From Myxococcales bacterium (lineage in GTDB: Bacteria; Myxococcota_A; Polyangia; Fen-1088): a stretch of 64,000 nucleotides of DNA. The notes beneath the pieces were generated by a model. It had not been told where the DNA came from and made no database searches. It saw only the letters and a program-made list of their open reading frames with translations. A program made the translations under genes and the position numbers. Position 1 is the first letter of the stretch, and every line of letters begins with the position of its first letter. Shown in pieces: positions 2,394 to 38,818 of this stretch. Location of the stretch: NCBI GenBank assembly GCA_031423255.1, contig JANPFD010000236.1, positions 171,180 through 235,179 of the forward strand, read 5' to 3'.

Positions 2394-3803
<1,410 letters not shown>

Positions 3804-5851: not shown

Positions 5852-5866
5852 TTTCTCTATGACTTC

Positions 5867-10474
<4,608 letters not shown>

Positions 10475-22083: not shown

Positions 22084-22998
22084 GTGATGAAGCGCTTGTT
22101 TCTCGTGCTTGCCGCGTTGATCCTTTTCCAGAGCGCCGCGGAGGCTGCGCGGTCGGGCGGTAGCTTCGGCGGCCGCGGGGGGTTCCGCTCGGCGCCGCGA
22201 GGGTCGTATTCGCGGCCCGCTCCCAGCGGCTATGGAAGCCGCGGCCCGAACATCATCTTCTTCCCGGGCTTCGGATGGGGCGGTGGCTACGGTATGGGCG
22301 GCGGCGGCTTCACCACCATGTTGATCCTGGGCGTGCTTGGCGTAGGTCTGGTGATGGCGTTCCGGAGCCAGATCCGCAACCACGCCCTCGGCCGCTCACG
22401 CAATGACTCGGACGAGGCCCCCGTCTGGGATCGCGCCTTCGTCTACAAGGTTCAGCTGGGGCTCGGCCGGTCGGCGCGGCAGATCCAGGAGCGCCTGGCG
22501 CGTTTCGCCGCCGAGGGGGATACCAGCACCGAGGCGGGGCTGACGCAGCTCCTGCAACAGACCTCGCTCGAGCTGCTGCGCGAAAAAGACGCCATCCGCT
22601 ACGCGGCCATCGAGCAGAGCGGCCCGATGAGCATGCAGAACGGCGAGACCAAGCTGAACGGGGCCTCACTGGCCGAGCGGTCGCGGTTCCAGATCGAGCG
22701 CGTGCGGGGCACGGACGGCAAGGTTCACAAATCCGACGTCGTGGCCAAGGAGAGCTCGGAGGCGCTGGAATACGTGGTGGTCACCCTGGTGCTAGCCACC
22801 CGGGAGCCGCTGCGTGACCTGCCGTCAATAACCGAGATGACCGAGCGCGACCAGATGGATGCCGTGCTGGGTCAGCTCGGAGGTGTGCCGCACGACTCGC
22901 TGCTGGGGCTCGAGGTCATCTGGACACCCGCGGACGCGGAGGACAGCCTGACGCAGATGGATCTGATGACGGCGTACCCGCAGATGCGGAGCCTCTAG
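22084..22998 (+). CDS. DUF1517-family secreted/membrane protein
   Basis: Signal peptide, a Gly-rich region, one TM helix, then a conserved C-terminal domain. The architecture matches DUF1517 proteins. Confidence 0.55.
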   Translation: MMKRLFLVLAALILFQSAAEAARSGGSFGGRGGFRSAPRGSYSRPAPSGYGSRGPNIIFFPGFGWGGGYGMGGGGFTTMLILGVLGVGLVMAFRSQIRNHALGRSRNDSDEAPVWDRAFVYKVQLGLGRSARQIQERLARFAAEGDTSTEAGLTQLLQQTSLELLREKDAIRYAAIEQSGPMSMQNGETKLNGASLAERSRFQIERVRGTDGKVHKSDVVAKESSEALEYVVVTLVLATREPLRDLPSITEMTERDQMDAVLGQLGGVPHDSLLGLEVIWTPADAEDSLTQMDLMTAYPQMRSL

Positions 22999-23000
22999 AC

Positions 23001-23234
23001 GTGCCTCCTGCCACGGTGCCGATGTCCCGGCTGCTGATCGACGCGGCCATCTTCGGTCTGGCGGGCATCGCGCTCCTCATCATCGGCTACTACGTCTGGG
23101 AGCTGGTGACCCCCTACAATCTGCGGCGCGAGCTGCACGAGAACAAGAACCTCGCGGTGGCAGTGGTGTGCGCCGCCCTCATCATCGGCATGGCGATAGT
23201 CATCGCCGCTGCACTGATCGCCAGTCGCCGGTAA
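23001..23234 (+). CDS. DUF350-family small membrane protein
   Basis: 77 aa with two TM helices and a central ELHENKNLAVAV motif. It starts 3 nt after the DUF1517 gene. Confidence 0.6.
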   Translation: MPPATVPMSRLLIDAAIFGLAGIALLIIGYYVWELVTPYNLRRELHENKNLAVAVVCAALIIGMAIVIAAALIASRR

Positions 23235-23270
23235 TTTTCTGGTAAGGTCGCCACTCTCCGTCGGCTAACG

Positions 23271-24818
23271 ATGAACAAGCTGGTCATCGAGGATGAAGAA
23301 GGTAAAGCGGTCGCCGTACCGCTGATCCGTGACGAGATCACGATCGGACGTCAGGAAGGGAACACCATCCGCCTGACGGAGCGGAACGTGTCGCGCCGGC
23401 ACGCCCGGTTCCAGCGCCGCGAGGGCGGCCAGTACTTCGTCGAGGACCTGTCGAGTTACACGGGCACCAAGGTCAACGGGTTGCCTATCAACGGCGCCGT
23501 GCCGGTCAAGGAGGGCGACCACGTCTCCATCGGCGACTACAAGCTGTCGATCAAGATAGAGCGTCCCGCGGGGGCCACGCTCGGCCACCAGCAGGCCGCG
23601 GCCTCACCGATCCCGCCCGCGCCCGTCGTGCCCGTCGCTCCCTTCCCCCGTGTGCCGACACCCATGGGCATCCCCGCCATGCCTCCTCCGGTCACACCGG
23701 CCATGGCCGTACCGCCCGTGGCGACGCCGTTGCCCCCCTTGGCACCGGCCGCCGACCCGATCGACGGCGCCCCGACGATCCCTGTGCGCGCCATGGTGGA
23801 GCAAGCACCCGCCGCCAGCGGCCCGCCAGCCAGGCTGGTGGTGATCACCTCGCCCCTGCAGGGCCAGGAGCACCCCCTCGATCGTCCATCGATGGTGATC
23901 GGTCGGACGCCCGAGAACGACATCGTGGTGAACCACAAGTCCATCTCACGCCACCACGCGAAGATCGTGCGTGACGGCGAGCGCTACGTCGTGGTCGACC
24001 TGGAGAGTGCGAACGGCGTCCGCGTCAACGGGGCTCAGTTCGATAGAGTCGATCTGAATCCGGGCGATGTGATCGAACTCGGGCATGTGCGGCTCCGCTT
24101 TTCGTCGGGCGACGACATGGGCTTCGACGGCGATGACTACGCGGCCGGCGGTTCATCGAAGAAGCCGATGGTGATCGGCGGCCTGGTGGTGGCGGTCCTG
24201 GCGGTGGGCGTGGCGGTGTTTGCCTTCTCGGGAAACAAGGCCGCACCACCGGAACCTCCGAAGGTCGCGGCACCCGCCCCCACCCCGCCCGCGCCGACCC
24301 CGCCCACGCCGGAGCCCACGCCGCCCGCGGCCGAGCCACCGCCCTCGGAGCTACCGCCCGTGATTGCCGCGAAACCGCCCGCGCCCGAGCCCGCGCCGGA
24401 GCCGGAGCCCGCCGCCAAGGAACCCCCGCCGGTACGCGAGCGGCCCCGCAGCGAACGCAAGGTGGCTACCGCCGAACCGGCCCCGATCCGCCCGACGCGA
24501 GCACCTGCGCCACGACCGACGGCGGCGCTCGAGCCGGGTCGCGAGCAGGCCGCGCCGGCGGCGGTGGGCGACCCCGAGGCGCTGATGAAAGATGCGCAGG
24601 ACGCCTGGCTCAAGGGCCAGTTCGCGGCCGCGGTCGAGGCAGCGCGCAAGGCCCTGCGGGCGAAGCCCGGGCTGGCGCGGGCCTACCAGATCATCGCGGT
24701 CTGTTCCTGCTCGCTCAAGGATGCGGACACCGCGTCCAAGGCGTACGACCGCCTCGACGACCGGAACAAGCAGATGGTCAAGACCCTCTGCCAGAAGAGC
24801 GGCGTGACGCTGCAGTAG
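23271..24818 (+). CDS. Tandem FHA-domain protein with a TM helix, Pro-rich spacer and C-terminal TPR
   Basis: Two FHA signatures (GR..N.I.L....VSRRHA... and GR....DIVV....ISRHHAKI). Confidence 0.8.
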   Translation: MNKLVIEDEEGKAVAVPLIRDEITIGRQEGNTIRLTERNVSRRHARFQRREGGQYFVEDLSSYTGTKVNGLPINGAVPVKEGDHVSIGDYKLSIKIERPAGATLGHQQAAASPIPPAPVVPVAPFPRVPTPMGIPAMPPPVTPAMAVPPVATPLPPLAPAADPIDGAPTIPVRAMVEQAPAASGPPARLVVITSPLQGQEHPLDRPSMVIGRTPENDIVVNHKSISRHHAKIVRDGERYVVVDLESANGVRVNGAQFDRVDLNPGDVIELGHVRLRFSSGDDMGFDGDDYAAGGSSKKPMVIGGLVVAVLAVGVAVFAFSGNKAAPPEPPKVAAPAPTPPAPTPPTPEPTPPAAEPPPSELPPVIAAKPPAPEPAPEPEPAAKEPPPVRERPRSERKVATAEPAPIRPTRAPAPRPTAALEPGREQAAPAAVGDPEALMKDAQDAWLKGQFAAAVEAARKALRAKPGLARAYQIIAVCSCSLKDADTASKAYDRLDDRNKQMVKTLCQKSGVTLQ

Positions 24819-24821
24819 CCG

Positions 24822-25247
24822 CTACTTCTTTTTTTCCAGGTCGACGTAAGCGTTGCCCGGTTGGGCCTGCTTCTCGACCGGCAGGTTCGAATCGGCCCAG
24901 CCGGCGAAGGCCACCCGGCCCATCGGATCGCGCTCGCCGTGGAAACCGCCACGCACATCGACGATCTGCGTGTAGCCGGCCGCCTCGAGGAACGCGGACG
25001 CCTGCGCCGACCGACCGCCCGACTTGCAGCCCACGACGAGCTTCGTGTCCCTGGGAAAATTCGACTCGACGACCCGCTGGAAGTCGGGGTTGGGAGCCAT
25101 GCGTCCCGACTGGGCGTGCAGCAGCGGCACGTTCGCGGCGCCCGCCGGATGGCCTTCGTCGAACTCCGGGATCGACCGCACATCCAGATAGCGCCAGCCC
25201 TGCTTCATCAACACGGCCGCTTCAGCCGATGAAATTCGCTTCGCCAT
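24822..25247 (-). CDS. Rhodanese-domain sulfurtransferase
   Basis: Active-site loop VVGCKSGGRS within a single rhodanese fold. Confidence 0.8.
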   Translation of the reverse strand: MAKRISSAEAAVLMKQGWRYLDVRSIPEFDEGHPAGAANVPLLHAQSGRMAPNPDFQRVVESNFPRDTKLVVGCKSGGRSAQASAFLEAAGYTQIVDVRGGFHGERDPMGRVAFAGWADSNLPVEKQAQPGNAYVDLEKKK

Positions 25248-25283
25248 GGGAGGTCATCTAGCATGAAGAACAGCCGCTGAGGT

Positions 25284-25706
25284 ATGATTCGCGGCCCCAT
25301 GGCGCACGCACCCAAGCACGTACGCGTGGTCGCTGCCGTCATCGAGCGGGACGGCAACTACCTCATCACGCAGCGGAGGCCGTCCGCGGTCCTGGGCGGG
25401 TTGTGGGAGTTCCCGGGCGGCAAGGTGGAGACGAACGAGTCGGACGAGCAGGCGCTGGTAAGGGAGCTCCGCGAACGCGTCGGCGTCGACGTCACCATCA
25501 AGGGCCGCGTCGCCCAGCGCCAGCACACGTACGACGGGTACTCGGTCGAGCTGAGCCTCTACCAGGCGACGATCACACCGGGACAGGAGCCGCACGCTGC
25601 CAAGGTGGCGGACTTCCGCTGGGTGGCCTCGTCGGACTTCGAGAAGTACCCGTTCCCGGCGGCTGATCAGGCGACCATGGATCTGCTCCTCGGGGTCAAG
25701 CGTTAG
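25284..25706 (+). CDS. NUDIX hydrolase (MutT-like)
   Basis: Nudix box GG.WEFPGGKVE..ES...ALVRELRERVGV. Confidence 0.8.
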   Translation: MIRGPMAHAPKHVRVVAAVIERDGNYLITQRRPSAVLGGLWEFPGGKVETNESDEQALVRELRERVGVDVTIKGRVAQRQHTYDGYSVELSLYQATITPGQEPHAAKVADFRWVASSDFEKYPFPAADQATMDLLLGVKR

Positions 25707-25708
25707 TG

Positions 25709-26593
25709 GCGCCAGTCCGGTCCATTCGCTCACCCACCCCCACGTTGAAGTCGCTCGATCCGGCGGCGGCACGCTGGATAGGCGCTCTCATCCGGGTGTC
25801 GGCGGCGCACCCGGCGATGACCCGTATCCTCGACGTCATCGTGAGGTTGCAGGAGCACCCGTACCGCACCTAGTTCGTCGTTCTGGGCGAGCCGGGCACC
25901 GGCAAGGAGGGGCTGGCGCGGGCGCTCCACCAGTTGCTCTCGCCGCGAGGGCCCCTGGTCCGCCTCGACGTGGCTGGCTTTCCCGAGGATGCGGCGCTGG
26001 AGGCGCTGTGCGGGACGCTGAAGGAACCGGGCGCCGCCGAGTCCGCCGACGGCGGCACCCTGGTGATCGAGGAACTGACGGCGATGCCACTGCGCGCCCA
26101 GGAGGCGCTGTTGCGGCTGCTCAAGGCCGGACGTTGCCGCCGGGTCGGCCAGAGCAAGGACCTGCCGCAACGTCTGACCGTGAACGCCATCGCCCTGTCG
26201 GACCACCCGATCGAGCGCGCCGTGACCGAGGGGCGCGTCCGCCACGATCTCTACTACCGCCTGGCGCGCGTGGTGCTGTGGCTGCCGCCGCTGCGCGACC
26301 GCTCCGACGACATCGGCCCGGCGGCGGTCTGGATGGGTAACCGCATCCTGGCCGCCGCGCAGGTGCCGCTGGAAGTGCGCACCACCGAGGACCTGCGCAC
26401 CGCCCCCGAGGCCGAGCGTAGACGGGCCATCGAACTCGACCCGGCTGCGGTGACGGCGCTGCGCGCCCACAGCTGGCCGGGCAACTTCCGCGAACTCGAG
26501 GCCACGCTGGAGCGGGCCCTGCTGCTTTACAGGGCGGGGATGAAGCTGGGCGCGAACGAGATCAAGGCGGCGCTGGAGTCTCCGACCGGTTGA
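25709..26593 (+). pseudogene. Stand-alone sigma54-activator-like AAA+ domain protein (no receiver, no HTH, GAFTGA loop replaced) interrupted by an in-frame TAG at 25871-25873
   Basis: Walker A (FVVLGEPGTGKE), the DLYYRL...LPPLRDRSDDI motif and the C-terminal WPGNFRELE motif are all present. The ESELFGHEKGAFTGA region reads EALCGTLKEPGAAES instead. An in-frame TAG lies between IVRLQEHPYRT and FVVLGEPGTGKE. The ORF-track ORF 25934.. begins at a TTG downstream of the Walker A. Confidence 0.5.
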
Positions 26594-27878
26594 CGGAGGC
26601 CGGATCGAAGCGCACGCCGTGCAGCAACAGCGCCCAACGCAGCAGCTTGCGTCGGGGCTGGGCGTATTCGCAGGCATCCGGTCCAGCCTTGTCTGGCAGC
26701 CCCGTGCTGCCCGGTTTCATGAAGCGCACCAGCCAGTCGCCCGCCGCGCGAGCAGCGGCCTCGACGCTGTCCTCTGGCGCACGGGCAAGAAGCGCGTGTG
26801 CGAGGATCACGTCATTCGCGTGCAGGTGGGCATCGCACGCGGGACGCGCACCGAAGAGACCATCCGCCGTCTGCGCGTGGAGCGCTCGCCCGATCTCTGC
26901 GTTACTGGAGGTCGATTCGGTGCCAGCCAGCGCCAGGGCAGCTTCGATCGGCCGCATGCGCTGACTCGCGCCGGCCTGGCCGCGCACCGCGACCGCCGAC
27001 GCTTGCACGGCCTGTCGCACTCCGTGCAAGCGGGGGGCATAGGTATCCGCGAAGCGGCTGCTCGCCACCGCCTCGAGGGCCACCCTGGCCCACGCGAGCC
27101 AGCGCGCCGTGCAGGCCATGTCCCCCGCTATGACCCATTGCGTGCGCGCACTGGGCGCGGTGGCTTCGATCACCGCCCAGCCCTCGTCCATGCGTGCCTT
27201 GTCGCCCAGGGCAGCGCCTGAAACCAGATTCATCACGCCCGTCGAGTGCTCGACGGCGCAGCCCCCCGCCGGCGTGCGGAGTTCGGGCCTCGGGACGCGC
27301 AACGATGCGACCAGCTCATGGGGCGCACGGCGGAGGACCGCGACCAGATTCTCGGTGCGCGGGACGCTCGACGCGACGTCACTGCTCCCGCGTGGTTCCG
27401 GAAGCGCCACGACCGGGCTCGACGGCTGCGGTGCGGATGGCGGCGCGGGTTCAGGCAAAAAGTGTGGAGGGGCGCCGCCGGTCTGCGAGCGGGGCACCGG
27501 AACCTCGCTCGAGCTGATCTCCCCGTGCGCGCGCTCGTGCGGCTGCCGCGCGGCAATCAGAAGCGCCACCGCGATGGCCACACCTGCGGGAACCGTGACC
27601 AGCAGTGTGCGCCGCAGACGCCGCCGCGGCCGCAAGTGCGTAGGTACGTCGGGAGCTGAGCGCGCCGCCACGATCTCCATGCAGCCGAGGTGGACGTCGA
27701 CGTACTCGAAGTAGAGACGTCGCACCTCGGAATCGTCCGCCACCAAGGAGCGCAGGCGACCTCTCTGCTCGGATGACGCCGTCTCATTGCAGACGGCTTC
27801 GAGCAGCGTCCAGATCTCGATCGAGACCTTCTCGCTCACGCTTGCCCTCCGCTGGTCCCCGTCCGCAGCCGCACACAC
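26562..27878 (-). CDS. Anti-sigma factor-like protein (N-terminal anti-sigma domain, one TM helix, large C-terminal domain of unknown function)
   Basis: It overlaps the 3' end of the ECF sigma gene. The N-terminal LLEAVCNETASSEQRGRLRSLVADDSEVRRLYFEYVDVH resembles anti-sigma N-domains, followed by a TM helix (LLVTVPAGVAIAVALLIAA). The start codon is uncertain. Confidence 0.5.
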   Translation of the reverse strand: MCAAADGDQRRASVSEKVSIEIWTLLEAVCNETASSEQRGRLRSLVADDSEVRRLYFEYVDVHLGCMEIVAARSAPDVPTHLRPRRRLRRTLLVTVPAGVAIAVALLIAARQPHERAHGEISSSEVPVPRSQTGGAPPHFLPEPAPPSAPQPSSPVVALPEPRGSSDVASSVPRTENLVAVLRRAPHELVASLRVPRPELRTPAGGCAVEHSTGVMNLVSGAALGDKARMDEGWAVIEATAPSARTQWVIAGDMACTARWLAWARVALEAVASSRFADTYAPRLHGVRQAVQASAVAVRGQAGASQRMRPIEAALALAGTESTSSNAEIGRALHAQTADGLFGARPACDAHLHANDVILAHALLARAPEDSVEAAARAAGDWLVRFMKPGSTGLPDKAGPDACEYAQPRRKLLRWALLLHGVRFDPASVNRSETPAPP

Positions 27879-28378
27879 TGGTGCAGCTTCCGGCGGATCA
27901 AGTTGAGCTGGTTGTAGAGCGTCTGCACCGCCCGGCCCATCCGCTGGGCGACATCCTTCATGGGCTGTTTGTCACGATAGATGCTGTCGAGAAGCCGACG
28001 CTCGTGATCACCCAGAGTGTCGATGCAGGTATTGAGTGCCGCGAGCCGGGCCTCGTGACGGTCGAGGTCCACGGTTCGTTCCTCCGCGACCCTCCCGAGC
28101 AGGTCGTCATCCAGCCAGAGTCGATCGCGGCCAGCGATGCGGCCGAAGTTCGCCACCTGGCGCCAGGCATATCCACAGGCCCAGGTCCGGAACGACGAGC
28201 GCCTGTCCCAGGTATCGAACTTGCGCCACAACGTCTCGCACGTCCGCTGGAACACGTCCTCGGCGTCCGCTCGACGAGGGAGCAGTGAGAAGATGAAGGC
28301 GAAGACTTGCTGCCGGTGCCGCTGCAACTCGGCCACGAACAGGTCTGTCGCGTCTTCGGTCGGCCGGTCCGTGTCCAC
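27836..28378 (-). CDS. ECF-family RNA polymerase sigma factor (sigma-70 regions 2 and 4)
   Basis: Region 2 (DAEDVFQRTCETLWRKFDTWD...FRTWACGYAWRQV) and region 4 (LDSIYRDKQPMKDVAQRMGRAVQTLYNQLNLIRRKL). It starts with GTG at 28378. Confidence 0.85.
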   Translation of the reverse strand: MDTDRPTEDATDLFVAELQRHRQQVFAFIFSLLPRRADAEDVFQRTCETLWRKFDTWDRRSSFRTWACGYAWRQVANFGRIAGRDRLWLDDDLLGRVAEERTVDLDRHEARLAALNTCIDTLGDHERRLLDSIYRDKQPMKDVAQRMGRAVQTLYNQLNLIRRKLHQCVRLRTGTSGGQA

Positions 28379-28387
28379 GCTTGGTCG

Positions 28388-28413
28388 ATGTACGGGCCCT
28401 GCCCGACTTACCG
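28388..28413 (-). promoter_or_regulatory. Motif copy A: CGGTAAGTC-N11-GTACAT (read on the minus strand), ending 9 nt upstream of the ECF sigma start codon; candidate ECF-type promoter/operator
   Basis: Plus strand reads ATGTAC-N11-GACTTACCG at 28388-28413, with the same 17-nt internal spacing as copies B and C. Confidence 0.45.
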
Positions 28414-29118
28414 AACATCGGCGGATTCGCCTGAAGCCCCGAGCGGTGTCGACGCGACGCGTCCAAGCCCCGTCGCGATACTGGCCGCCACCTGCTTGGC
28501 CAGGACGCGCGAGCCCTCGGGCGTGAAGTGGACGTTCACGGGTATCTGGATCTCTTTCAATCTGGGCAGGGCATAGCTGTAGAGATCATCGATGGGAACT
28601 CGATTCTCGAGCATGACCTTCTTCGCCGTCGCGTTGTAGGGGATGACGTCGGCGCTTCGTCGCGCCTTGACGTCGCCGGCAGGCACAGGAGTCGTGCTGC
28701 ACCAGATCAACCGAGCTCGCGTCTTCTCGAGCGTCGTCACGAGCGCCCTCAGATTCTTCTCGTAGTCCCCGAGGGACACCTGGTGGTTTCCGTCGTCCAT
28801 GACCCTGATGTCGTGAAGACCCCAGTTGAAATGGATCACGTCCCACTTGCCGTTTCCGACCCATTCCTCGAGGTGAGTCAATCCGTTGACGGTCGGCCCT
28901 CCGTTCGCTGGAATCCGGTGGACGTTGGCCCTTTCCTTCAGGAGTTCGCGCACCGCAACCGTGTACCCGATGGAGATGGAGTCTCCGATGAGCAGGACGC
29001 GGGGGAGCTTCGGATCGTCGATGACGGGAGCGTAGGCGGCCGCCTTGTCGGTCTTGCTGGCGGCCTGGGCGACGCCGAGCATCGCGACGCATACAGCAGC
29101 GCAAACAGGAATTTTCAT
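28408..29118 (-). CDS. SGNH/GDSL-family hydrolase (secreted)
   Basis: Signal peptide MKIPVCAAVCVAMLGVAQAAS, GDS block LLIGDSIS, and a WGLHD block. ATG at 29118; the upstream ORF-track extension was rejected. Confidence 0.75.
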   Translation of the reverse strand: MKIPVCAAVCVAMLGVAQAASKTDKAAAYAPVIDDPKLPRVLLIGDSISIGYTVAVRELLKERANVHRIPANGGPTVNGLTHLEEWVGNGKWDVIHFNWGLHDIRVMDDGNHQVSLGDYEKNLRALVTTLEKTRARLIWCSTTPVPAGDVKARRSADVIPYNATAKKVMLENRVPIDDLYSYALPRLKEIQIPVNVHFTPEGSRVLAKQVAASIATGLGRVASTPLGASGESADVR

Positions 29119-29127
29119 CTCGGGTTG

Positions 29128-29153
29128 ATGTACAGCCCTGCGCGGACTTACCG
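29128..29153 (-). promoter_or_regulatory. Motif copy B: CGGTAAGTC-N11-GTACAT (minus strand), ending 9 nt upstream of the SGNH hydrolase start codon
   Basis: Plus strand reads ATGTAC AGCCCTGCGCG GACTTACCG. Confidence 0.45.
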
Positions 29154-29172
29154 ACTGCGGGGAACTGACCGC

Positions 29173-29198
29173 CGGTAAGTCTCCCTGGGGTTGTACAT
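29173..29198 (+). promoter_or_regulatory. Motif copy C: CGGTAAGTC-N11-GTACAT (plus strand), 23 nt upstream of the DUF1592 gene start, followed by a GGAGG ribosome-binding site
   Basis: CGGTAAGTC TCCCTGGGGTT GTACAT, in inverted orientation relative to copy B within the same divergent intergenic region. Confidence 0.45.
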
Positions 29199-29221
29199 GA
29201 AGCAATGGACCGCCCCGGAGG

Positions 29222-30895
29222 ATGCTCATGGTTTCATCGACTGTCCGTTACGCGACCGCGGCTTCCGGCCTGATTCTGCTGACGCTGGGCGGTTGCACCG
29301 GCGACATTGGCCCCGCCACGGAGGCCGACCCACCGGGCGGAACGCCGACCCGGTCTGACGAGCCCCCATCGACGAATGCCGATCTCGCCCCGGCCCGCGC
29401 GCGCCGCCTGGCCATTGCCGAGATCCGGAACACCGTCGCGGACATGCTGTTCGCCGGCGCTCTTGGGCGTGTACCCCCGCTGCCGCCGCCCACGAATGAC
29501 GGGTTCGACAACGACACGGCGTTGCTCGGAATGGACATCGGGTTCGTGGAAACGATGAGCGTCTTCGCCGAAGCGACGGCGAACGAGGTGCTGAAGGATC
29601 TCACCCGACTCGCGCCCTGTGATGACCTGCGCATGGTGTCGGGCTGTGGTTCACGGTTCATCGCTACCCACGCGCCACGGCTGTATCGCCGACCAATCGA
29701 ACCCGCCGAGTCGCAGCGCCTGCTGGTTCTGTTCAACGCCGCGCTCGGCTCGGGCACCTACGAGCAGGCAGTGGCGTCGCTGATCCAGATGATGCTGCTC
29801 TCGCCGCAGTTTCTTTACCGCACCGAGCTGGGGTCGCTCCGGGACGCTGCGGGCGTGGTCACCCTGACGTCGTACGAGCGGGCCTCGGCGCTGTCGTACG
29901 GCCTGTGGCGGACGGGGCCCGACGCTCAGTTGCTCGCGGCCGCCCAGACGGCGGCGCTGGACGGCGAGACCGGCCTGCGCACCCAGGTTCTCCGGATGCT
30001 CGATGATCCACGCGCTCGCCCCGCGCTGCGGTCGTTCGTCGTGCAGTGGCTACAGCTGCACCCCATGGACGTCTCGAAGTCCGACCCCGTGTACACGGGC
30101 TCGCTCGCTCGCGCGATGCAGGTCGAGTCCGAGCGTTTCGTCGACGAGGCGCTCTGGGGCACGAACGCAGGGCTAGGAGCGCTCCTCACGTCGACGCGGT
30201 CGTTTGTAAACGGAGAGCTTGCCCGGCTCTATGGCCTGGATGTCTCCTCGACGACGCCGGTCGCCGTCTCGGTTCCCGTCGAACAGCAGCGAGGAGGTGT
30301 CATGGGCCTCCCGGCATTCGTCGCCTCGCACACGCCTCGCGACGCGTTCAGCCCGATCGAGCTTGCCGTCATCGTTCGCGTGCAGATGCTCTGCGCGACT
30401 CTGCCGACGCCTCCCGCCGATGTCCCCGACCCGTCGACCAACGCGAGGATGTCGACCCGCCAGCGGTTCGACCGCCATCGCGCGGATCCCGCCTGCGCCG
30501 GCTGCCACACGCTGCTCGATCCCGTCGGCTTTGCGTTCGAGCGGTTCGGCACGACGGGGCAGTATCGCCTGATCGAGCAACCTTCGGGCGCGATGCTGAC
30601 CGGCGAGGGGCGCCTGACTGCGACGGACGTCGACGGTCCGATCGTGGGCCCCGCCCAGCTCGGACAACGCCTGGCCGAAAGCAAGCAGGCTCGCTCGTGC
30701 GCGGCCGCGCAGACGCTGCGCTACCTGCTGGGCCGACCAACGTCCGTGCCCTCACAACGGACCACCGCCGACGAGCGGACCCTGACGGCAGTGACGGAGA
30801 CGACGTTCGCCGGCGGCGACTTCAAGAAGCTGATGGCGGCACTGGTGCTCTCGGATTCATTCCTGCGCCGCGATGGTTCCCGCTTGCCCAACTGA
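29222..30895 (+). CDS. DUF1592/DUF1588-family lipoprotein (Planctomycete-type PSD-domain protein family)
   Basis: Lipoprotein signal (LLTLGGC). The conserved C-terminal region has a CAGCH motif, which is typical of the DUF1592/1588/1585 family that pairs with DUF1552. Confidence 0.65.
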   Translation: MLMVSSTVRYATAASGLILLTLGGCTGDIGPATEADPPGGTPTRSDEPPSTNADLAPARARRLAIAEIRNTVADMLFAGALGRVPPLPPPTNDGFDNDTALLGMDIGFVETMSVFAEATANEVLKDLTRLAPCDDLRMVSGCGSRFIATHAPRLYRRPIEPAESQRLLVLFNAALGSGTYEQAVASLIQMMLLSPQFLYRTELGSLRDAAGVVTLTSYERASALSYGLWRTGPDAQLLAAAQTAALDGETGLRTQVLRMLDDPRARPALRSFVVQWLQLHPMDVSKSDPVYTGSLARAMQVESERFVDEALWGTNAGLGALLTSTRSFVNGELARLYGLDVSSTTPVAVSVPVEQQRGGVMGLPAFVASHTPRDAFSPIELAVIVRVQMLCATLPTPPADVPDPSTNARMSTRQRFDRHRADPACAGCHTLLDPVGFAFERFGTTGQYRLIEQPSGAMLTGEGRLTATDVDGPIVGPAQLGQRLAESKQARSCAAAQTLRYLLGRPTSVPSQRTTADERTLTAVTETTFAGGDFKKLMAALVLSDSFLRRDGSRLPN

Positions 30896-30907
30896 CAGGA
30901 GGTCCCG

Positions 30908-32290
30908 ATGAGCTCGCGTATCCGCTCCCGACGTCAGCTTCTGCAGACTTTGACCATCGGCACCGGCGTCGCGGCGTTCGCCCCCGCTTTGCGGCCATGG
31001 CGCGTGCGCGAAGCCTACGCGCAGCCGCCATCGGGGCCGCCGAAGCGGATCGTGTTCGTGTTCTTCCCCCACGGGTGGCCGGACCCCACGGACATCGCGA
31101 CGCCCGGCGTGTCGGCCACGGATTTCAAGCTGGGCGCCATCGCCCAGCCGCTCGAGCGGCATAGACGCGATCTGGTCATCCTGGACAACATGGAGTTCAA
31201 GCGCCCCGCCGACCAGGGTTTCCAGCACGGTGTCGGCCGGTGCATGCTGTGGACGGGACGACCGACGCTGGCGACGGACCCGGGGGCGGCCGCGAAGGGG
31301 ATCTCGCTCGACCAGTACCTGGGCAAGGTGGTGGGGACCAAGGTCACCCCTGGCCTTCCTCTCCTCAACCAGCGGCTCTATGACCGGGTCGGGCAGTTGC
31401 TCGAGTGCTCGTACAACGAGAGCGGGGGCGTCGTTCCCGCCAACGCGAACCCGCACGACGTCTACAACAGCGTGTTTCGCAACCTCGTCGTGGGAGGCCC
31501 ACCCAAGAGCGACCCCGTGGCAGACGCCGCGAGCGCACGCAAGAAGTCCGTCCTCGATGCGGTGGCGGCCGAGGTGAATCTCTTTCGCAAGCGTCTTGGA
31601 CCCGAGGATCGGATCCGCGCCGACGCCCAGCTCGAGGCCATCGCCTCGATGGAGGCCAAGGTCGCCGGGCTGCAGGCGCGAGGCGCGTCGTGCAGCAAGC
31701 CGCTGGACAACCTGGCCGTGCCGGTTCCGGATCCGTCGACCCGATCACTGCCTGCCCGGGCCGACCTTCAACTGTCGCTCTTGACCGCGGCCTTCGCCTG
31801 CGATCTCACACGAATCGCCAGCTACCAGGTCATGGGCGGCCAGAACCTTCCGTGCAACTTTTCGCCGGTCTCGAACTCGGCCAACTGGCACAGCCTGTCC
31901 CACGGTGGGAACGACAATTACGCGTCCTTCAGGAACGCCCAGCGCTGGGTATTCTCGCTGGTTGCCGACCTGGCGGATCGTCTGAAGGCCATCCCCGAGG
32001 GCGCAGGGACGATGCTCGACAACACCATCATCGCCATGGGCAGCGAGATCGGACCGCGCCATGTCCTGCACGGCCTGTTCCTGATGAGTCTGGGCGGCAA
32101 GAATCTCGGCATCAGGGTCGGCCAGCACCTGCGCTTTGGTGACGTGCGTGCGTTCGGTCGCGGCCAATCGCACAACCCGTGGCTGGTGTCCCTCATGAAC
32201 GCGATGGGGGTCCCGGGGGATACCTTCGGCGACACCACGGCGCTGGCCGGGCGAGGCTCGCTGCCGGGGTACTGGAGCGCGCCGGCGTGA
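30908..32290 (+). CDS. DUF1552 (HXXSHH-family) protein with a twin-arginine signal
   Basis: Tat-like N-terminus (SRRQLLQTLTIGTGVAAFA), an HSLSHG motif (NWHSLSHGGN), and a position immediately after a DUF1592 gene. Confidence 0.7.
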   Translation: MSSRIRSRRQLLQTLTIGTGVAAFAPALRPWRVREAYAQPPSGPPKRIVFVFFPHGWPDPTDIATPGVSATDFKLGAIAQPLERHRRDLVILDNMEFKRPADQGFQHGVGRCMLWTGRPTLATDPGAAAKGISLDQYLGKVVGTKVTPGLPLLNQRLYDRVGQLLECSYNESGGVVPANANPHDVYNSVFRNLVVGGPPKSDPVADAASARKKSVLDAVAAEVNLFRKRLGPEDRIRADAQLEAIASMEAKVAGLQARGASCSKPLDNLAVPVPDPSTRSLPARADLQLSLLTAAFACDLTRIASYQVMGGQNLPCNFSPVSNSANWHSLSHGGNDNYASFRNAQRWVFSLVADLADRLKAIPEGAGTMLDNTIIAMGSEIGPRHVLHGLFLMSLGGKNLGIRVGQHLRFGDVRAFGRGQSHNPWLVSLMNAMGVPGDTFGDTTALAGRGSLPGYWSAPA

Positions 32291-33778
32291 CGGCGGCATC
32301 GCTGTGTCTCGTCGCCGCGGCGCAGGTGGTCGCGGCCATAGCCGATCCGTCGCCTCGCCCGAACGTGATCTTCATTGCGCGCACACCCCATCTCGATGCC
32401 CTGGCGGCGCGAAGCCTGCGCTTCGACCACGCGTACGCGCAGTATCCGGTATGCAATCCCTCGCGTATCTCGATGCTGACGGGACTGCGGCCCGAGACTT
32501 TCCAGATCTACGACAACCGCACACCGTACCGCGCCAAGATCCCCGAGGCGCTGACGTTGCCGCGCCACTTCCGCGACGGCGGCTACCACACGGTGAAGGT
32601 GGGCAAAGTTTTTCACGACGGGCCAGCGTTCGACGACCCGCGCGCCTGGAACGAAGCTCTGGTTCCGGACGGAGCGCCGGGCTACGAAAAAGGCGAGGGG
32701 CGGCGCATGCTCGAATCCGAGCGGCTGGTGTCGATGGGTGGCATCGGAAGCGCCGGACGAGGCACAGCCGGACGGTGAGACGGCGACCGAGGCCATCCGG
32801 ATCCTCGAGCAAAGCAAGCCGGACAAGAAGCCGCTGTTCCTGGCGCTGGGATTCCGGCGGCCGCACGACCCATTCATCGCGCCCCAGGCGTACTTCGATC
32901 TCTACCCGCTCGAGCGCTTCAACCCATTGTCCCAGACGCGCGGGCCGACCGGCGATCCGCCCCCGGCGATCGAGCATGACGACCGGTTCCCGTTCGACGA
33001 TCGGGACAGGCGTGAGTTCTTGCGTGCTTACTACGCGGGCGTCTCGATGACCGACGCCCAGATCGGACGCGTGATGCGCGCACTCGATCGCCTTGGGATG
33101 GCGGAGGAGACCATCGTCGTCGTCACCAGTGACCACGGGTACCACCTGGGTGAGCGCGGCTGGTGGAACAAGGTGACGCTCTTCGAGCTCTCCACCCGCG
33201 TCCCGCTGATCGTCCGGGCTCCGGGGATGAAAACCGCCGGCCGTACCAGCGTGCGTCTGGTCGAACTCGTGGACCTGTTCCCGACGCTGGCGGACCTGGC
33301 AGGCGTGGCCATCCCGCCGAGCCTCGAGGGACGAAGCTTCCGGCCGTTACTCGCCGATCCGGACCGGCCGTGGAAGGCGGCGGCGCTGACCGTCGTGGCC
33401 CGCGGCTCGATCCTCGGCCGCACCGTCCGTACCGAGCAGCATCGATACACCGAGTGGGATGGCGGACGCGCCGGCCGCGAGCTCTATGACCACGGTCGCG
33501 ATCCGGGCGAGCACCGGAACCTGGCGGCGGATCGTGGACAGGCGGGAACCGTGCGCGCGTTGCACAGCCTACTGAACTCCGGACCCGGGGCTACCGAAAA
33601 AACGTCGTGTGCAGTACCTCCGACAGGAGGTTGCACAGGGCGTGGAACACCGCTCCCGGCGCGATCGAACCCGTACGCGCGCGCATCCACCCGAAGACCA
33701 GCGCCGGAAAGAACACCACGATGCGCGCTGGATCGAAGTCGACCAGCACGTGCCCCAGCGCGAACAACAGGCTGGTGA
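32287..33778 (+). pseudogene. Sulfatase (iduronate-2-sulfatase/arylsulfatase-like) with an in-frame deletion of the metal-binding DD region and a frameshift near 32735
   Basis: The N-terminal frame has a signal peptide, RPNVIFIA-RTPHLDALA (about 15 residues including the VDD...G loop are missing relative to canonical sulfatases), the CNPSR formylglycine motif and GKVFHDG. The reading frame switches to +1 around 32735, and the C-terminal part ([33 protein letters not shown]) continues from there. Confidence 0.6.
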
Positions 33779-34316
33779 CGATGAGCGGGCGGCCCACCAG
33801 CGCGTCCATGAACCGGCGCCTGGACGGCCAGCGCTCCTCGAAACGGGCCCAGAGATAGCCGCGGAAAAACAGCTCCTCCGGGATGGCCACCACCACCAGT
33901 TGCGACGCCGCCAGGAGGGCGAAGTCCGGCGGGAGCCGCAACGACGCGCCGTCGAGGCCGGTCCAGCCGGGACACAGCGGCGCGAACAGGTTCGCCCAGA
34001 CCTGCAGCAGCGGCGCCGTCGAAGCGCAGACCATGCCGTAGAACGCCAGGAACGACAGGAAGAAGCAGGGCCAGGTGAGCGCCAGCGCCGAGGCGGTGAT
34101 CCTCAGGTTCAACCGGAGCGGGTCGATGCGGAGGCCGGCCGCGCGGTAATCGAATCGGCGCCCCGACATACGGGCGGCCAGCGCGGGCGCGTACAGGAAG
34201 ATCACCGCGAGGGCTCCATGCAGGTTCGCGTGGACGAACGGCACCGCCTGGCCGATCCAATACAGCGCCGAACTGAGGGCCGTGGCGACGAGGAACGCCG
34301 CGAGCGGTTCGATCAC
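33591..34316 (-). CDS. CPBP-family intramembrane glutamic metalloprotease (CAAX protease / Abi family)
   Basis: EELFFRG and FALGH motifs across several TM helices. Confidence 0.75.
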
Positions 34317-34329
34317 CGCCGTCTTCCTG

Positions 34330-34581
34330 CTAGAAGAGGCGACTGAGGTCGTCGAGGGCGCGGCTGGCGTGGCGGGCGGCCCCGGCCAGGCGGTCGGGAG
34401 CCTGGGCGTCGATCCGCGAGGCCTTCAGGCCGACGAGGAGGGCGTCCAGCTGCCTCTCGATGGCTGTGATCGCCTCGCGGCTGCGCCGGAGCGCGGTCAC
34501 GGCACGGGGCATCGTCAGACGGGACTCGGCCGGGGGCGCTGGACACCGCTTCCGCGGAATCGAACGTCGGGCGGGGCGCAT
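34330..34581 (-). CDS. Small hypothetical protein (about 60-83 aa, predicted helical) immediately upstream of the CPBP protease
   Basis: ORF in an operon-like position between two minus-strand genes. Its composition is typical of GC-rich DNA, so coding status is uncertain. Confidence 0.25.
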   Translation of the reverse strand: MRPARRSIPRKRCPAPPAESRLTMPRAVTALRRSREAITAIERQLDALLVGLKASRIDAQAPDRLAGAARHASRALDDLSRLF

Positions 34582-34620
34582 GACCCAAGTTTCCGGTGGG
34601 CATGCGTTCTGTCAACTTTC

Positions 34621-36027
34621 TCAACCAAGCAGGTGGTGCGCCAGGGGGTCCACCACCACCTCGTGGCCAAGCGCCGTGCGGCCCACCAGCATGGGGCAAC
34701 GCATGTCGCCCCGGTCCGTCAGCGTCACGCGGATGCGCTTGCGGAGCGGCCCCAGTTCGAGTGTGGTCTCGATGACCGGGCGCCGCTCGGTGCGACCCGA
34801 GGTGTCCCTCACCTCGATGAACTCCTTGACCGGGACGCGCACGCGAAGCCGGCGGCGCGAGGAGCCCCCCACGGCCAGGGTCAGTTCGAGGATGGGGCGG
34901 CGGCTGGGCCCGGGGGCCGTCCCTACCGTGCGGCTGGCGATGACGTGGAGCGCTGAGGTGCGGGCTCCCGTATCGATCTTGGCGGGCACCCGCCCCAGGC
35001 CCAGATCGGGAAGCGAGATCGACTCGAGCCAGCCGACCCGTAACTTGGCTTCCGCCGGCGGGCCAGGCCGAGCTGCCTTAGGGTTCTTTGCGTCGCGCAC
35101 CGCCCCGACGAGAAACAGCACCGCGCCCTTCCGAGTCACCGGGCGATCGGGCGCCTCGAGGACCAGGCCTCGCGCCGGTGCACGCACGGCCACGGCCCGG
35201 CCGGGCAGCGGCCCCTCGATCCGGGCGAGCACGTGACCCTTGCCGACCAGCGCACCAGGCTCGACGGTCTCGACGAGCACACCGTCCGCCGGGGCCAGCA
35301 CGCGGACGAGGTCATGCACCACCGTTCCCGGGGCTCCGGACGCCCGGCCGACGCGCCCGACCAGGCCCGGCAGAACGATCGCCAGCGCGCGGCGACAGGC
35401 GGCCAGCAGGATCTGTCCGGCGCTGCCGACCCCCGAATCACCGCCAGCCACGAGGCCGATGGTGGTCCGGCGGGCCTGGCCGGCGACCGCCACCAGCGAC
35501 CCATCGGCCGCCGGGACGATCGCGCGGGCGCCGCTTGCGACCGCAAGCGCCCTCGCCCGCGTGTCGTCGGGACAGACCCGAGCGTACAGCAGGCAGCGCC
35601 GCCCCGGCAGGGGCGAGCCGAGCACGATGACTGCCTCGGCCCCTACCACCAGATCCGAGTAGAGGGCGAACGCCAACCGCCCGCGCCGCTTGCCTCCGGC
35701 GTCACCCGGCAGTGGCAGCGCTGGCACCACCCTCCCCGGCCGCGTGAACCGATTCCCGGGCCGCAGCACCGGCACCACCACCAGCGTCCCGGTCAGCGCC
35801 GCCGGATCCAGCTCGGCGATCAGCGCCCGCGCCGCCAGCGTGGAGGCCACCTCGCACCCGTGCAGGTTCGCCACCACGGTCACGCGCGGACCGGGCGCCC
35901 GCCCCACCGCCACCCAGGCGCCGACGGCCGTCGCCTCGTCGAGGCCGATGCTCACCACGGCAGCACGGCCCGGAGCGACCTCCACGCCGCCCACCCGCTG
36001 TGCGCGCGGCGCGACCTCGGTCGCCAT
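34621..36027 (-). CDS. Fusion protein: N-terminal succinylglutamate desuccinylase/aspartoacylase-like (AstE_AspA) domain plus C-terminal RimK-associated retropepsin-like domain (DUF785, annotated in databases as putative ATP-dependent zinc protease)
   Basis: The C-terminal LGRVPAKIDTGARTSALHV matches the DUF785 aspartic-protease-like signature. The N-terminal half resembles the AstE/AspA deacylase fold, including VANLHGCE. Confidence 0.6.
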   Translation of the reverse strand: MATEVAPRAQRVGGVEVAPGRAAVVSIGLDEATAVGAWVAVGRAPGPRVTVVANLHGCEVASTLAARALIAELDPAALTGTLVVVPVLRPGNRFTRPGRVVPALPLPGDAGGKRRGRLAFALYSDLVVGAEAVIVLGSPLPGRRCLLYARVCPDDTRARALAVASGARAIVPAADGSLVAVAGQARRTTIGLVAGGDSGVGSAGQILLAACRRALAIVLPGLVGRVGRASGAPGTVVHDLVRVLAPADGVLVETVEPGALVGKGHVLARIEGPLPGRAVAVRAPARGLVLEAPDRPVTRKGAVLFLVGAVRDAKNPKAARPGPPAEAKLRVGWLESISLPDLGLGRVPAKIDTGARTSALHVIASRTVGTAPGPSRRPILELTLAVGGSSRRRLRVRVPVKEFIEVRDTSGRTERRPVIETTLELGPLRKRIRVTLTDRGDMRCPMLVGRTALGHEVVVDPLAHHLLG

Positions 36028-36030
36028 GGG

Positions 36031-36402
36031 TCAGCTGTTTCCGAGGATCAGATCGTCGTCGTCGGAGAGATAGGCGAAGGTCCGCACCAGCGTCAGGATC
36101 TGCTCGCGCAGCGCCGGCGTCAGGTCCACGAACTGCACGCCCATGCCAGGATTGGCCCCCTCGGGGTTGACCGGCCGGGGTCGGTTCACCCAGACGACCC
36201 GCCCCTCCACGTCGATCGGCATCCCCCCCGGCGTCTGGAAGGCGAGGTTCAGCAAGGTCCCCGGCGCCAGCGGCGTCTCGGTATGCACGAAGATCCCCAT
36301 CGCCGAGAGGTCCGTGATGTACGCGAACAGGAAGGTGTCCCCGTCGCGGTAATCGACCTCGAAGTTCACCATCACGCGCTCGTACTCGCGGCGTTCGAGC
36401 AT
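36031..36402 (-). CDS. PilZ-domain protein (c-di-GMP binding)
   Basis: RREYERV and DLSAMGIFV motifs (RxxxR...DxSxxG). ATG at 36402; a longer upstream start at 36510 is possible. Confidence 0.7.
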   Translation of the reverse strand: MLERREYERVMVNFEVDYRDGDTFLFAYITDLSAMGIFVHTETPLAPGTLLNLAFQTPGGMPIDVEGRVVWVNRPRPVNPEGANPGMGVQFVDLTPALREQILTLVRTFAYLSDDDDLILGNS

Positions 36403-36463
36403 CGCGCGGCGCTCCGGCGACACCGGGACTGCCCGGCGCCGTCGGTCCTTCGGGCGTGTGGTC

Positions 36464-38818
36464 CTAACGGATCTCAACGGTCCCCAGCCGCACGCGATCG
36501 TCGCCGTCATTGCGCCCGGCGGTGATTCGCCAGCGCTTGCCTTCGCCGCCCGGCCAGAAGCCGATGAGTGCCGTATAGGTCCCGGCCGGCGTGGTCATGA
36601 GCGGCACGTCCACCTCGTAAGTATCGCGGATGTACTCCCCCGGAAGCCAGTAGTTCGTGGGGAAGATAGGGGTGTGGTCGCCGATGACACGCGGCTCCCC
36701 TGGGATGTCGAAGTGTGCGAAGATCTTGAACCCACCCGGTGGGCGCCGGAACACCCTAAAATAAAGTGTGAGCAGGATCTTGCCGGGGCGGCGTAGCTCG
36801 GCCGGAAAGTCCGCACCCACCAGCTCCACGGCGTTCTCGAAAGTCGTGCTGGTCGAGACCCGCCAGGTCCAGGGCGGAGCCTGGCCGTGCCAGTCGACCT
36901 TGGTCTCGTTCGAGCCTGGCTGGGTCGACACCTCGGGCGGCGTGGACGCCATCCAGACATCCTTCTTCAGCGGGTTCTGATCCTGCTCGCCACTTTTGAG
37001 CTGGTTCGACAGCAGCAGGAACCGCGACGACGAGGCATCGAGGACGTAGTAGTCGAGCTTGGCCAGCTTGAACGAAGCGTCGAGCGCTGCCAGCTCGTCG
37101 GAGGCGGTGAGGCAGAACGTCCTTTTGGGACGGCGGAGAAACTCCACCACCTGTTCCTGCGACGGGATGTCCACCAGCTCCCGCTCGCTGTAAAAGCCGG
37201 TTCCGTGACCCTCGACGCGGTACTTGCCTATCTCCTCGTCGCCCTTGGCGTAGCGGGCGTAGGACTCGAGTACCGGCTTGAATGACAGGTGCCGCGACAG
37301 CATCGGCAAGAGCGCGTGCGAGATGAATGCGCCGAACAGCACGGCCGCGATGACCGCCGCCTGCAAACCCCAGCGCCCCACCTCGACCACCAGGGTCTCG
37401 AGTCGCCGCTGCCACCGGCGCGCGCCCGTCCCCAGGTCACGCGGCGCCACCTTGCCGATGGCCCGACCGCGCGTGGCGAGGCCCGTGTAGAGGCCGAGGC
37501 TGACCACCAGGCCGACGGCCAGGAAGACGTAGCCCACGGTGATCGTCGGAGGCCACTTCACCTTGGCGTTCTGGAACAGGTGAACCGAGACCAGCTCCTC
37601 GGGCGTCAGGAAGAAGTCACGGGCAACGATCATCGTGCCGGTGGCGATCAGCAGCCCCAGCACCGGTTCCGAACGCTCACCTTCGAGCGCCTCGTCGAGG
37701 AAGATGCCGATGGCCAGGGCCAGCGCCGCCAGCGCCGGAAAGCGCGCGTCTCCGGTCATCAGCATGTAGATGGTGGCCAGCGCGAAAGCAAAGGCCGCGA
37801 AGATCAACAGGTACAGCTGCCCGAAAGCCAGGCGGCCGCCGTCGCGCTCCTCGGCATTGCCGAGGCGGATCAACGGCCGCCCCAGGGCGAACACCACCAG
37901 CGCGCTCCAGGGGAAGATGCCGAACCCGATCTGCTTGATGAGGTACTCGAACATCTGGGCCGGCGTCCCGGCACGGGGCACGCCGCCGAGCAGGATCGAG
38001 TAGCGGCCAGCAACGTTGGCGCGCAGGAGCGTCACGATCAGCACGCCGACGCCGAGGAGCGCCACCGCCAGTAGGAGCCCGCGCCCGTGTACTCCTTTGG
38101 TCAGGAGTCCCCGGCCGAAGCTGGTCCCCTCGGGCACGTCGCGCCCGGTGACGGCCGTCGTCAGCACAGCGGCGCCCTCGGTCTCGGCGGCGTGCGGCTG
38201 CAACCCCCAGCCGGCGACGATGGTCGCCGTCAACGCCAGGCAGGGAAGCGCCACACCGATGAGCGCGCCGCCCGAAAGAAGGCCGATCACCATGCCGGCG
38301 ACCGCGACGGCCAGGTCGCGCATCCGGCGCTGGCCCGTGGCGGGCCAGGCGAACCGCCCGAAGCCTCCGAGCGCGAGCGCCAGCCCGCAGACGAGCGGCA
38401 TGTCCGACAGCAACTGCCGCGCCTGCAGGATGAAGATCGGCATCGAGCCGAGGGCCAGCGCCGCCAGCAACCCGGCGCGGCGGCGAAACAGCCCCGCGCC
38501 CGCCCAGTACACCGCGAGAATCGCGCCCACGCCGGCCAGCGCGTCGAAGAAGCGCGCGCCCAGCTCACGCACGCCGAACACCTTCATGCCCAGCGCATCC
38601 AGGAACAGGTTCAGCGGCGGCTGGGGCGAGAACTTCCCACCCACCGTGGGGTCGAACAGGCTGGACGAGCGCATCACCGCGCGCGCCTGATCGGCCACTC
38701 CGAGCTCCCAGGGATCCCAGAACCCGAACGAGCCGAGACCGGGCAGGATCAGCAAGCCCGCGAAGATCGCGGCCCAGCCAGCAGGCGGCACCCGGCGCAG
38801 CTTGACCAAAAAGCTCAT
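36464..38818 (-). CDS. Large integral membrane GT-C / glycosyltransferase family 39-like protein (ArnT/PMT-like) with a large C-terminal periplasmic domain
   Basis: More than 10 TM helices, with architecture and N-terminal loop motifs reminiscent of ArnT/PMT-family GT-C enzymes. Confidence 0.6.
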   Translation of the reverse strand: MSFLVKLRRVPPAGWAAIFAGLLILPGLGSFGFWDPWELGVADQARAVMRSSSLFDPTVGGKFSPQPPLNLFLDALGMKVFGVRELGARFFDALAGVGAILAVYWAGAGLFRRRAGLLAALALGSMPIFILQARQLLSDMPLVCGLALALGGFGRFAWPATGQRRMRDLAVAVAGMVIGLLSGGALIGVALPCLALTATIVAGWGLQPHAAETEGAAVLTTAVTGRDVPEGTSFGRGLLTKGVHGRGLLLAVALLGVGVLIVTLLRANVAGRYSILLGGVPRAGTPAQMFEYLIKQIGFGIFPWSALVVFALGRPLIRLGNAEERDGGRLAFGQLYLLIFAAFAFALATIYMLMTGDARFPALAALALAIGIFLDEALEGERSEPVLGLLIATGTMIVARDFFLTPEELVSVHLFQNAKVKWPPTITVGYVFLAVGLVVSLGLYTGLATRGRAIGKVAPRDLGTGARRWQRRLETLVVEVGRWGLQAAVIAAVLFGAFISHALLPMLSRHLSFKPVLESYARYAKGDEEIGKYRVEGHGTGFYSERELVDIPSQEQVVEFLRRPKRTFCLTASDELAALDASFKLAKLDYYVLDASSSRFLLLSNQLKSGEQDQNPLKKDVWMASTPPEVSTQPGSNETKVDWHGQAPPWTWRVSTSTTFENAVELVGADFPAELRRPGKILLTLYFRVFRRPPGGFKIFAHFDIPGEPRVIGDHTPIFPTNYWLPGEYIRDTYEVDVPLMTTPAGTYTALIGFWPGGEGKRWRITAGRNDGDDRVRLGTVEIR

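Follow-up and report, generated by a model that had tools for sequence, protein, structure and literature searches.

A 64-kb stretch of contig JANPFD010000236.1 (assembly GCA_031423255.1), referred to below as the window, carries three copies of a 26-bp element, CGGTAAGTC-N11-GTACAT, which precede the genes for an extracytoplasmic function (ECF) sigma factor, a secreted SGNH esterase and a DUF1592 lipoprotein. The motif is real and non-random, its position and orientation are conserved in orthologous loci, and a related motif is present upstream of the sigma gene family-wide. Judging from sequence comparison, the three copies (A, B and C) are very likely promoters recognised by RNA polymerase with the adjacent ECF sigma factor (27836-28378), which would then drive its own operon together with its neighbours. 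An autoregulated local ECF regulon had been proposed in an earlier sequence-only reading of the window, and this proposal gains support from the motif conserved at the sigma gene in orthologs and from the box pair that recurs across the family.

Three copies of a 26-bp element in the window

Copy A (28388-28413, minus strand) would serve the sigma/anti-sigma operon. Its -35 box CGGTAAGTC occupies positions 28413-28405 and is joined by the spacer gggcagggccc to the -10 box GTACAT at 28393-28388, which ends 9 nt before the GTG start codon of the sigma gene at 28378. Copy B (29128-29153, minus strand), in which the same boxes flank the spacer cgcgcagggct, is assigned to the SGNH esterase gene. 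Here GTACAT again ends 9 nt before the start codon (ATG 29118, the start that yields a signal peptide on the SGNH protein), and no Shine-Dalgarno sequence is found in between. Copy C (29173-29198, plus strand; spacer tccctggggtt) is directed toward the DUF1592-DUF1552-sulfatase operon, with GTACAT ending 23 nt before ATG 29222 and 29 nt before ATG 29228. Re-reading of the sequence and a pattern count confirmed the three copies, their coordinates and the constant 11-nt spacing given in the sequence-only reading, as well as its claim that each copy points at a different gene start, namely those of the ECF sigma, the SGNH esterase and the DUF1592 lipoprotein. The B/C pair is inverted, as it had stated, except that the arrangement is not head-to-head: the two copies stand back to back, with their CGGTAAGTC boxes facing each other 19 nt apart and transcription divergent.

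The three exact matches in the window compare with an expectation of 0.00 from 100 dinucleotide-preserving shuffles. No further copies with up to three mismatches were found within the 64 kb, where 0.43 would be expected. We also built a weight matrix from ten sites in five related loci (L001-L003, L136 and L227), leaving out the window sites. Copies A, B and C were the top three window matches (32.2, 31.2 and 20.8 bits, respectively), followed by a next-best match of 12.7 bits, and the maxima of 20 simulated windows had a mean of 12.8 bits, the largest being 20.1. The mismatch scan and the matrix scores bear out the earlier remark that nothing comparable exists elsewhere in the window. No sigma-70-type promoters were predicted in the region 25000-34500. 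The geometry of the motif corresponds to GGTAA-N16-ACAT, which is an ECF-like spacing; the -35 element would be GGTAAG within CGGTAAGTC, and the -10 element (GT)ACAT.

In single-stranded form, copies B and C with parts of their spacers would fold as a long hairpin within 29119-29221 (-49.6 kcal/mol, z = -4.2). This hairpin probably arises as a side effect of two promoters that face each other, given that the copies are 50-90 nt apart in the orthologs; the interpretation of the B/C pair as a functional hairpin or terminator was rejected on the same ground. The idea that copy A is a recent duplicate of copy B is likewise unsupported, as outside the boxes only a shifted GCAGGGC and five of nine downstream bases agree.

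The sigma factor, its putative anti-sigma partner and the conserved candidate promoter

The sigma gene (27836-28378, minus strand) encodes a protein of 180 aa with a Pfam Sigma70_r2 match (2e-12). The protein belongs to the family TIGR02989 (Sig-70_gvs1, the Rhodopirellula/Verrucomicrobium family), scoring 145.8 bits against a cut-off of 124.55, and matches TIGR02937 (sigma70-ECF) over its full length (69.3 bits, cut-off 42.9). GTG 28378 has no in-frame start ahead of it, and the N-terminus lines up with those of the orthologs. The stop codon of the sigma gene overlaps (GTGA) with the GTG start at 27839 of a gene for a putative membrane anti-sigma factor (26562-27839, minus strand, within an open reading frame of 26562-27878), which comprises an N-terminal anti-sigma-like domain, one predicted transmembrane helix and an all-helical C-terminal periplasmic domain. 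A counterpart of its N-terminal residues ~21-64 is found behind the sigma gene in 41 of 83 related loci. The N-terminus also shares homology with that of a FecR-domain protein from L003, the locus of a sigma ortholog with 58% identity. The L003 anti-sigma (4966-6561) contains the FecR Pfam domain (2.4e-8), whereas the window protein has no Pfam matches at E <= 1 and therefore lacks the FecR domain (PF04773). On in silico evidence, the locus qualifies as an ECF module, comprising a two-domain ECF sigma, an overlapping putative anti-sigma gene and a conserved promoter upstream of the sigma's own gene.

The sensor domain of the anti-sigma factor (26562-27536, minus strand) is nearly an orphan: 5.8 billion proteins include three full-length relatives of it, and 1.84 billion yielded six representatives at E <= 0.001. 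Its AlphaFold model, computed from a four-sequence alignment, has a mean pLDDT of 62, and a Foldseek search of this model against the PDB returned nothing significant (best E 0.46, TM ~0.3). Some helical carbohydrate-active enzymes are among the weak top matches; they are not counted as evidence. The periplasmic sensor differs between close lineages, being a FecR domain in the 58% ortholog L003 and a near-orphan helical domain in the window clade.

Along with recognition of copies A-C by the adjacent sigma, their transcription start points, the leaderless translation described below and the signal, we infer the following circuit. In the resting state, the sigma factor would be held by the co-translated membrane anti-sigma factor, and a periplasmic signal sensed by the helical domain of the latter would release it. 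Free sigma would then fire copy A, which feeds its own sigma/anti-sigma operon in a positive feedback loop, copy B, which leads into the SGNH esterase gene, and copy C, from which the DUF1592-DUF1552(-sulfatase) operon would be transcribed with a leader of ~22 nt containing a GGAGG ribosome-binding site. Positive autoregulation and co-transcription with the anti-sigma gene are hallmarks of ECF sigma factors and an accepted basis of promoter prediction (PMC8103513, PMC7826278).

The close relatives of the window sigma share 73-78% and 58% identity with it, and five related loci (53-78%) cover the promoter region; for a 77% ortholog, P0003, the contig reached via the anti-sigma is a fragment without the promoter region. 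In L001, L002 and L003, the sigma/anti-sigma pair is directly divergent from DUF1592-DUF1552, and in L227 it is divergent from a sulfatase gene. The motif was found upstream of the sigma gene in all five loci, in the same orientation and near the start codon. Its sequence is CGGTAAGTT-N11-GTACAT in L227 (78%), CGGTAGGTC-N11-GTACAT in L001 (73%) and L002 (74%), and CGGTAAGTC-N12-GTACAT in L003 (58%) and L136 (53%). On the opposite side, the divergent DUF1592 genes of L001 and L002 are preceded by CGGTA(A/G)GTC-N11-GGACAT, followed by 30 nt with GAGGAG and then ATG. The sulfatase genes carry CGGTAGGGC-N11-GTACAT-N10-ATG in L227, CGGTAGGAA-N11-GTACAT-N10-ATG in L002 and AATTAGGAA-N11-GTACAT-N6-ATG in L001, where the -35 box is degenerate. 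Across the loci, the boxes are conserved, the 11-12 nt spacer is variable, and the orientation toward the gene is constant; the gap between divergent copies is 19 nt in the window and ~50-90 nt in the orthologs.

The L002 locus shows additional features. Its first 500 nt (1-500) hold a tandem duplicate of the divergent promoter pair, consisting of a DUF1592-type copy (99-124, minus strand) and a sigma-type copy (198-223, plus strand). The latter is followed by a sigma-gene remnant of ~15 codons (MADNVDGPASDSTEL...) that leads into the 3' end of DUF1552, and a third, weaker motif (337-362, minus strand) lies antisense to this remnant. The called start of the intact L002 sigma gene, ATG 3774, truncates the conserved N-terminus, and ATG 3745, located 12 nt past GTACAT, is off the reading frame by one base. 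A 1-nt error, or else a genuine frameshift, is suggested for the 5' end of this gene (3745-3776).

A metagenome scan with the sigma alignment yielded 80 loci at 35-53% identity. The upstream regions of these relatives share the pattern aaTTc..cGGTAAGTc-N~12-gtACGAt, and a soil clade (47-51%) has CGGTAAATC-N11-GTACGT-N8-ATG, the 8-nt gap being seen in seven of its loci; the -10 box is ACAT in the window subclade and ACGA or ACGT in most relatives. Of 74 non-redundant loci, 31 carry the pattern GGTA[AG][AG]T-N11-15-AC[GA][AT] on the coding strand no more than 250 nt before the sigma gene. The density of this pattern is 1.57 per kb upstream of sigma versus 0.017 per kb elsewhere in the same loci, a ~90-fold enrichment that is generous, since the pattern was composed after inspection of the data.

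Transcription from ECF promoters usually starts ~6-8 nt past the -10 box. Gaps of 6-13 nt between the -10 box and the start codon, without a Shine-Dalgarno sequence, are found at window copies A and B and at the sigma and sulfatase genes of the relatives (9 nt in L003, 8 nt in the soil clade, 6-10 nt for the three sulfatase genes, and 11-13 nt to in-frame ATGs in L001, L002 and L227), and the genes with 29-30 nt gaps carry GGAGG-type sites. Because only 9 nt without a Shine-Dalgarno sequence separate the -10 boxes of A and B from the start codons, the mRNAs from both copies probably have no leader, or one no longer than ~3 nt. Near-leaderless transcripts for the sigma and SGNH genes had been suggested before; the 9-nt gap stands, and the predicted leaderlessness is supported by the recurring gap of 6-13 nt. 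No literature on leaderless transcripts in Planctomycetes was found.

Genes downstream of the candidate promoters

The secreted SGNH/GDSL esterase gene (28408-29118, minus strand; assigned by Pfam, with a signal peptide) is absent from all orthologous loci inspected for it (L001, L002, L003 and L227). The esterase family itself is very large, highly conserved and spans several phyla. The gene has the lowest GC content in the neighbourhood (0.60, compared with 0.66-0.73 for the others), and its product has 12-14 extra C-terminal residues that are not present in homologs. Furthermore, its stop codon TAA sits inside the -35 box of copy A, the first six bases of which (CGG TAA) are the final codon and the stop of the SGNH gene. 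Its absence from the orthologous loci, low GC content, extra tail, stop codon within the -35 box and widespread family together indicate that the SGNH gene was probably inserted later, at a point between the promoter region of the sigma gene and the promoter of DUF1592, and gained copy B. The simplest reading of the present arrangement is that, after this insertion, the esterase and the sigma gene would each be preceded by a functional promoter copy. The sequence-only reading had listed the SGNH gene in the local regulon; as a conserved member it is not supported, given that it is missing from every orthologous locus.

The first gene of the divergent operon encodes a DUF1592/DUF1588/DUF1595/DUF1585 (PSD4/PSCyt3/PSD5/PSD2) lipoprotein (29228-30895, plus strand, with an alternative start at 29222; assigned by Pfam), which possesses the lipobox LTLGGC and a single CxxCH haem-binding motif at residue 423. 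The GGAGG at 29217-29221 abuts ATG 29222, and relative to the second ATG it forms GGAGG-N6-ATG. Because it touches ATG 29222, ATG 29228 is the more likely start of the two. The resulting 29-nt gap is close to the 30 nt in two orthologs (L001 and L002). The previously described distance of 23 nt from copy C to ATG 29222 is correct, and it is the use of GGAGG as the ribosome-binding site of that ATG that is less likely. Downstream lies the gene for a DUF1552 (HXXSHH) protein (30908-32290, plus strand), which has the twin-arginine signal SRRQLL and AGGAGG upstream. DUF1592 and DUF1552 constitute an exported pair.

The third gene, encoding a sulfatase (32287-33778, plus strand), begins with a GTG that overlaps the DUF1552 stop codon. 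It contains a frame change near 32720 and lacks ~15 N-terminal residues, including the Asp-Asp motif 'VDDLR', which is present in the L227, L001 and L002 orthologs. The window sulfatase is probably a pseudogene, or else its lesions are assembly errors in a metagenome-assembled genome (MAG). In the DUF1592/DUF1552/sulfatase module of the sequence-only reading, the sulfatase thus looks damaged. Genes nearby (22084-24818 and 34621-38818) have no relation to the module; they encode a DUF1517 protein, a protein that combines two FHA domains with a TPR region, a protein with a Zn-protease domain, and a PMT_2 glycosyltransferase. At 33600-36500, several long open reading frames without Pfam match overlap on both strands. 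Rfam and tRNA scans of the whole window gave no matches.

Alternative explanations and significance

Several points weigh against recognition of copies A-C by the adjacent sigma factor. The -35 box is GGTAAG, in which AAG takes the place of the canonical AAC, and the -10 box has CAT instead of the canonical CGT; at the sequence level, these boxes are a variant that leaves the architecture of ECF promoters unchanged. In L003, no copy could be recognised before the divergent DUF1592 gene at up to three mismatches, and the link to DUF1592 is for this reason not universal. The support for promoters is in silico comparison throughout, the family-wide enrichment is the generous figure given above, and the motif frequency in the source was assessed within the 64-kb window. 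Finally, planctomycetes carry many paralogous sigmas of this family, and a paralog could read the sites.

This last point leads to an alternative in which the reader of the three promoters is a paralog from the same ECF sigma family, with its gene elsewhere in the genome, and the adjacent sigma is a target in a cascade. It draws on the size of the sigma family, whose members share a similar -35 box (GGTAAGT), and on the numerous ECF paralogs in Planctomycetes (PMC7671368). However, the GTACAT/GGACAT variant travels with this particular ortholog group through six loci from different samples, whereas distant clades have ACGT or ACGA, and co-localisation of an ECF sigma with its own promoter is the rule (PMC7826278), so that we regard a cascade as unlikely. 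Marginally less likely still is that a separate DNA-binding repressor or activator uses the motif as its operator, with the B/C pair as a dimer site, an option that the sequence-only reading had already mentioned and to which the well-folding single-stranded inverted repeat (z = -4.2) would lend some weight. The two boxes are dissimilar, so that a site contains no internal repeat, direct or inverted; copy A, like every sigma-side site, stands alone, and the divergent gap varies from 19 to ~90 nt among orthologs. These features disfavour an operator, while the fixed orientation and short distance to start codons fit a promoter, and no other regulator gene is conserved in the loci.

That three almost identical copies, including an inverted pair, lie within 800 bp could also be attributed to a dispersed repeat (REP- or MITE-like) or to a structural hairpin unrelated to transcription initiation. 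We consider this explanation very improbable, since only the boxes are conserved while the spacers differ, no more copies exist in the 64 kb, and the boxes stay at gene starts in the orthologous loci as do all three copies in the window. Moreover, a 17-base version of the motif gave 13 single matches across 596 Gb of genomes and no stretch with multiple (three) copies, and the inspected match in a Planctomycetota MAG falls inside P-loop codons. The latter, at L217 2950-2975, is the sole planctomycete match of the 17-base motif and lies in the coding run of a Walker A P-loop (GLSGTGKST). It should be noted that GGTAAGTC is a natural coding sequence for G-K-S and hence a source of false positives in genome-wide motif scans.

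With the adjacent ECF sigma retained as the most likely reader of the three promoters, the module can be compared with known systems. Like modules of the RpoE-RseA and SigW-RsiW type, the window combines a two-domain sigma, an overlapping anti-sigma gene and a two-box, ECF-spaced promoter at its own operon and neighbours. As in ECF modules generally, the promoter motif is conserved within the phylogenetic group of the sigma, whereas the -35 box GGTAAG (not of the AAC type), the -10 box with CAT rather than CGT, the apparently leaderless sigma gene and the orphan sensor domain set the window apart. No literature on the promoter or targets of the TIGR02989 family was found in the texts available. 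Staron in 2009 reportedly predicted ECF promoters from upstream conservation as well, and the same principle, conservation upstream of the sigma gene, underlies later predictions (Casas-Pastor 2021, PMC7826278).

The FecI/FecR systems (ECF239-243 clade) offer a further parallel, inasmuch as the 58% ortholog L003 has a FecR anti-sigma to which the N-terminal segment of the window protein is homologous, even though the window anti-sigma is without a FecR domain. Among the genes annotated nearby, in the window as well as in L001-L003, none was found for a TonB-dependent transducer. Autoregulation is not typical of FecI-like sigmas (PMC8103513), whereas the window sigma appears to be autoregulated. 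In Rhodopirellula baltica, an ECF sigma gene adjoins a PSD/PSCyt gene (RB10049/RB10051) and was proposed as its regulator (Studholme 2004, as cited in PMC2754498). According to that citing account, the R. baltica pair involves DUF1553/DUF1549 (PSD1/PSCyt2) and not DUF1592/DUF1588, and no promoter motif was found there. The Bacteroidetes polysaccharide-utilisation loci resemble the window in that a sigma/anti-sigma pair stands beside secreted carbohydrate-type enzymes (here the sulfatase and the SGNH esterase) in a module that can be duplicated, as in L002. They differ from it in that the window has neither SusC/SusD genes nor a TonB-dependent transducer, its partners being the DUF1592/DUF1552 pair. 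PSCyt3 genes are described as pairing with an unknown gene family near sulfatases, their function being blank (PMC5615132).

The circuit is of an ordinary bacterial kind, ECF autoregulation being textbook knowledge, in an unstudied lineage; no description of this promoter was found in the literature. Its instructive features are the non-canonical -10 box, the probable leaderless genes, the turnover of the regulon and the replacement of the sensor domain. The candidate circuit would equip a planctomycete lineage without genetics with a defined 26-bp promoter and its cognate sigma/anti-sigma pair, and leaderless translation in Planctomycetota is a prediction that follows from the short, conserved gap between -10 box and start codon. 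It also represents a compact example of regulon turnover, where the same promoter stands before different genes in close relatives, the stop codon of an inserted esterase gene lies inside a -35 box, and a sulfatase gene is apparently decaying. In addition, it would tie the widespread and functionally blank DUF1592(PSCyt3)/DUF1552 pair to a signalling module, together with a sulfatase and an esterase. A more speculative scenario, which we put forward only tentatively, is that the module is a planctomycetal glycan-response unit, in which an ECF sigma with an interchangeable sensor drives the PSCyt3/PSD (DUF1592)-DUF1552 pair and exchangeable polysaccharide-trimming enzymes (a sulfatase and an acetyl-type SGNH esterase), partly via leaderless mRNAs, and which genes would join by gaining the 26-bp promoter next to their start codon. 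If true, such a unit would offer a first way into the regulation and function of the PSCyt/PSD-DUF1552 families.

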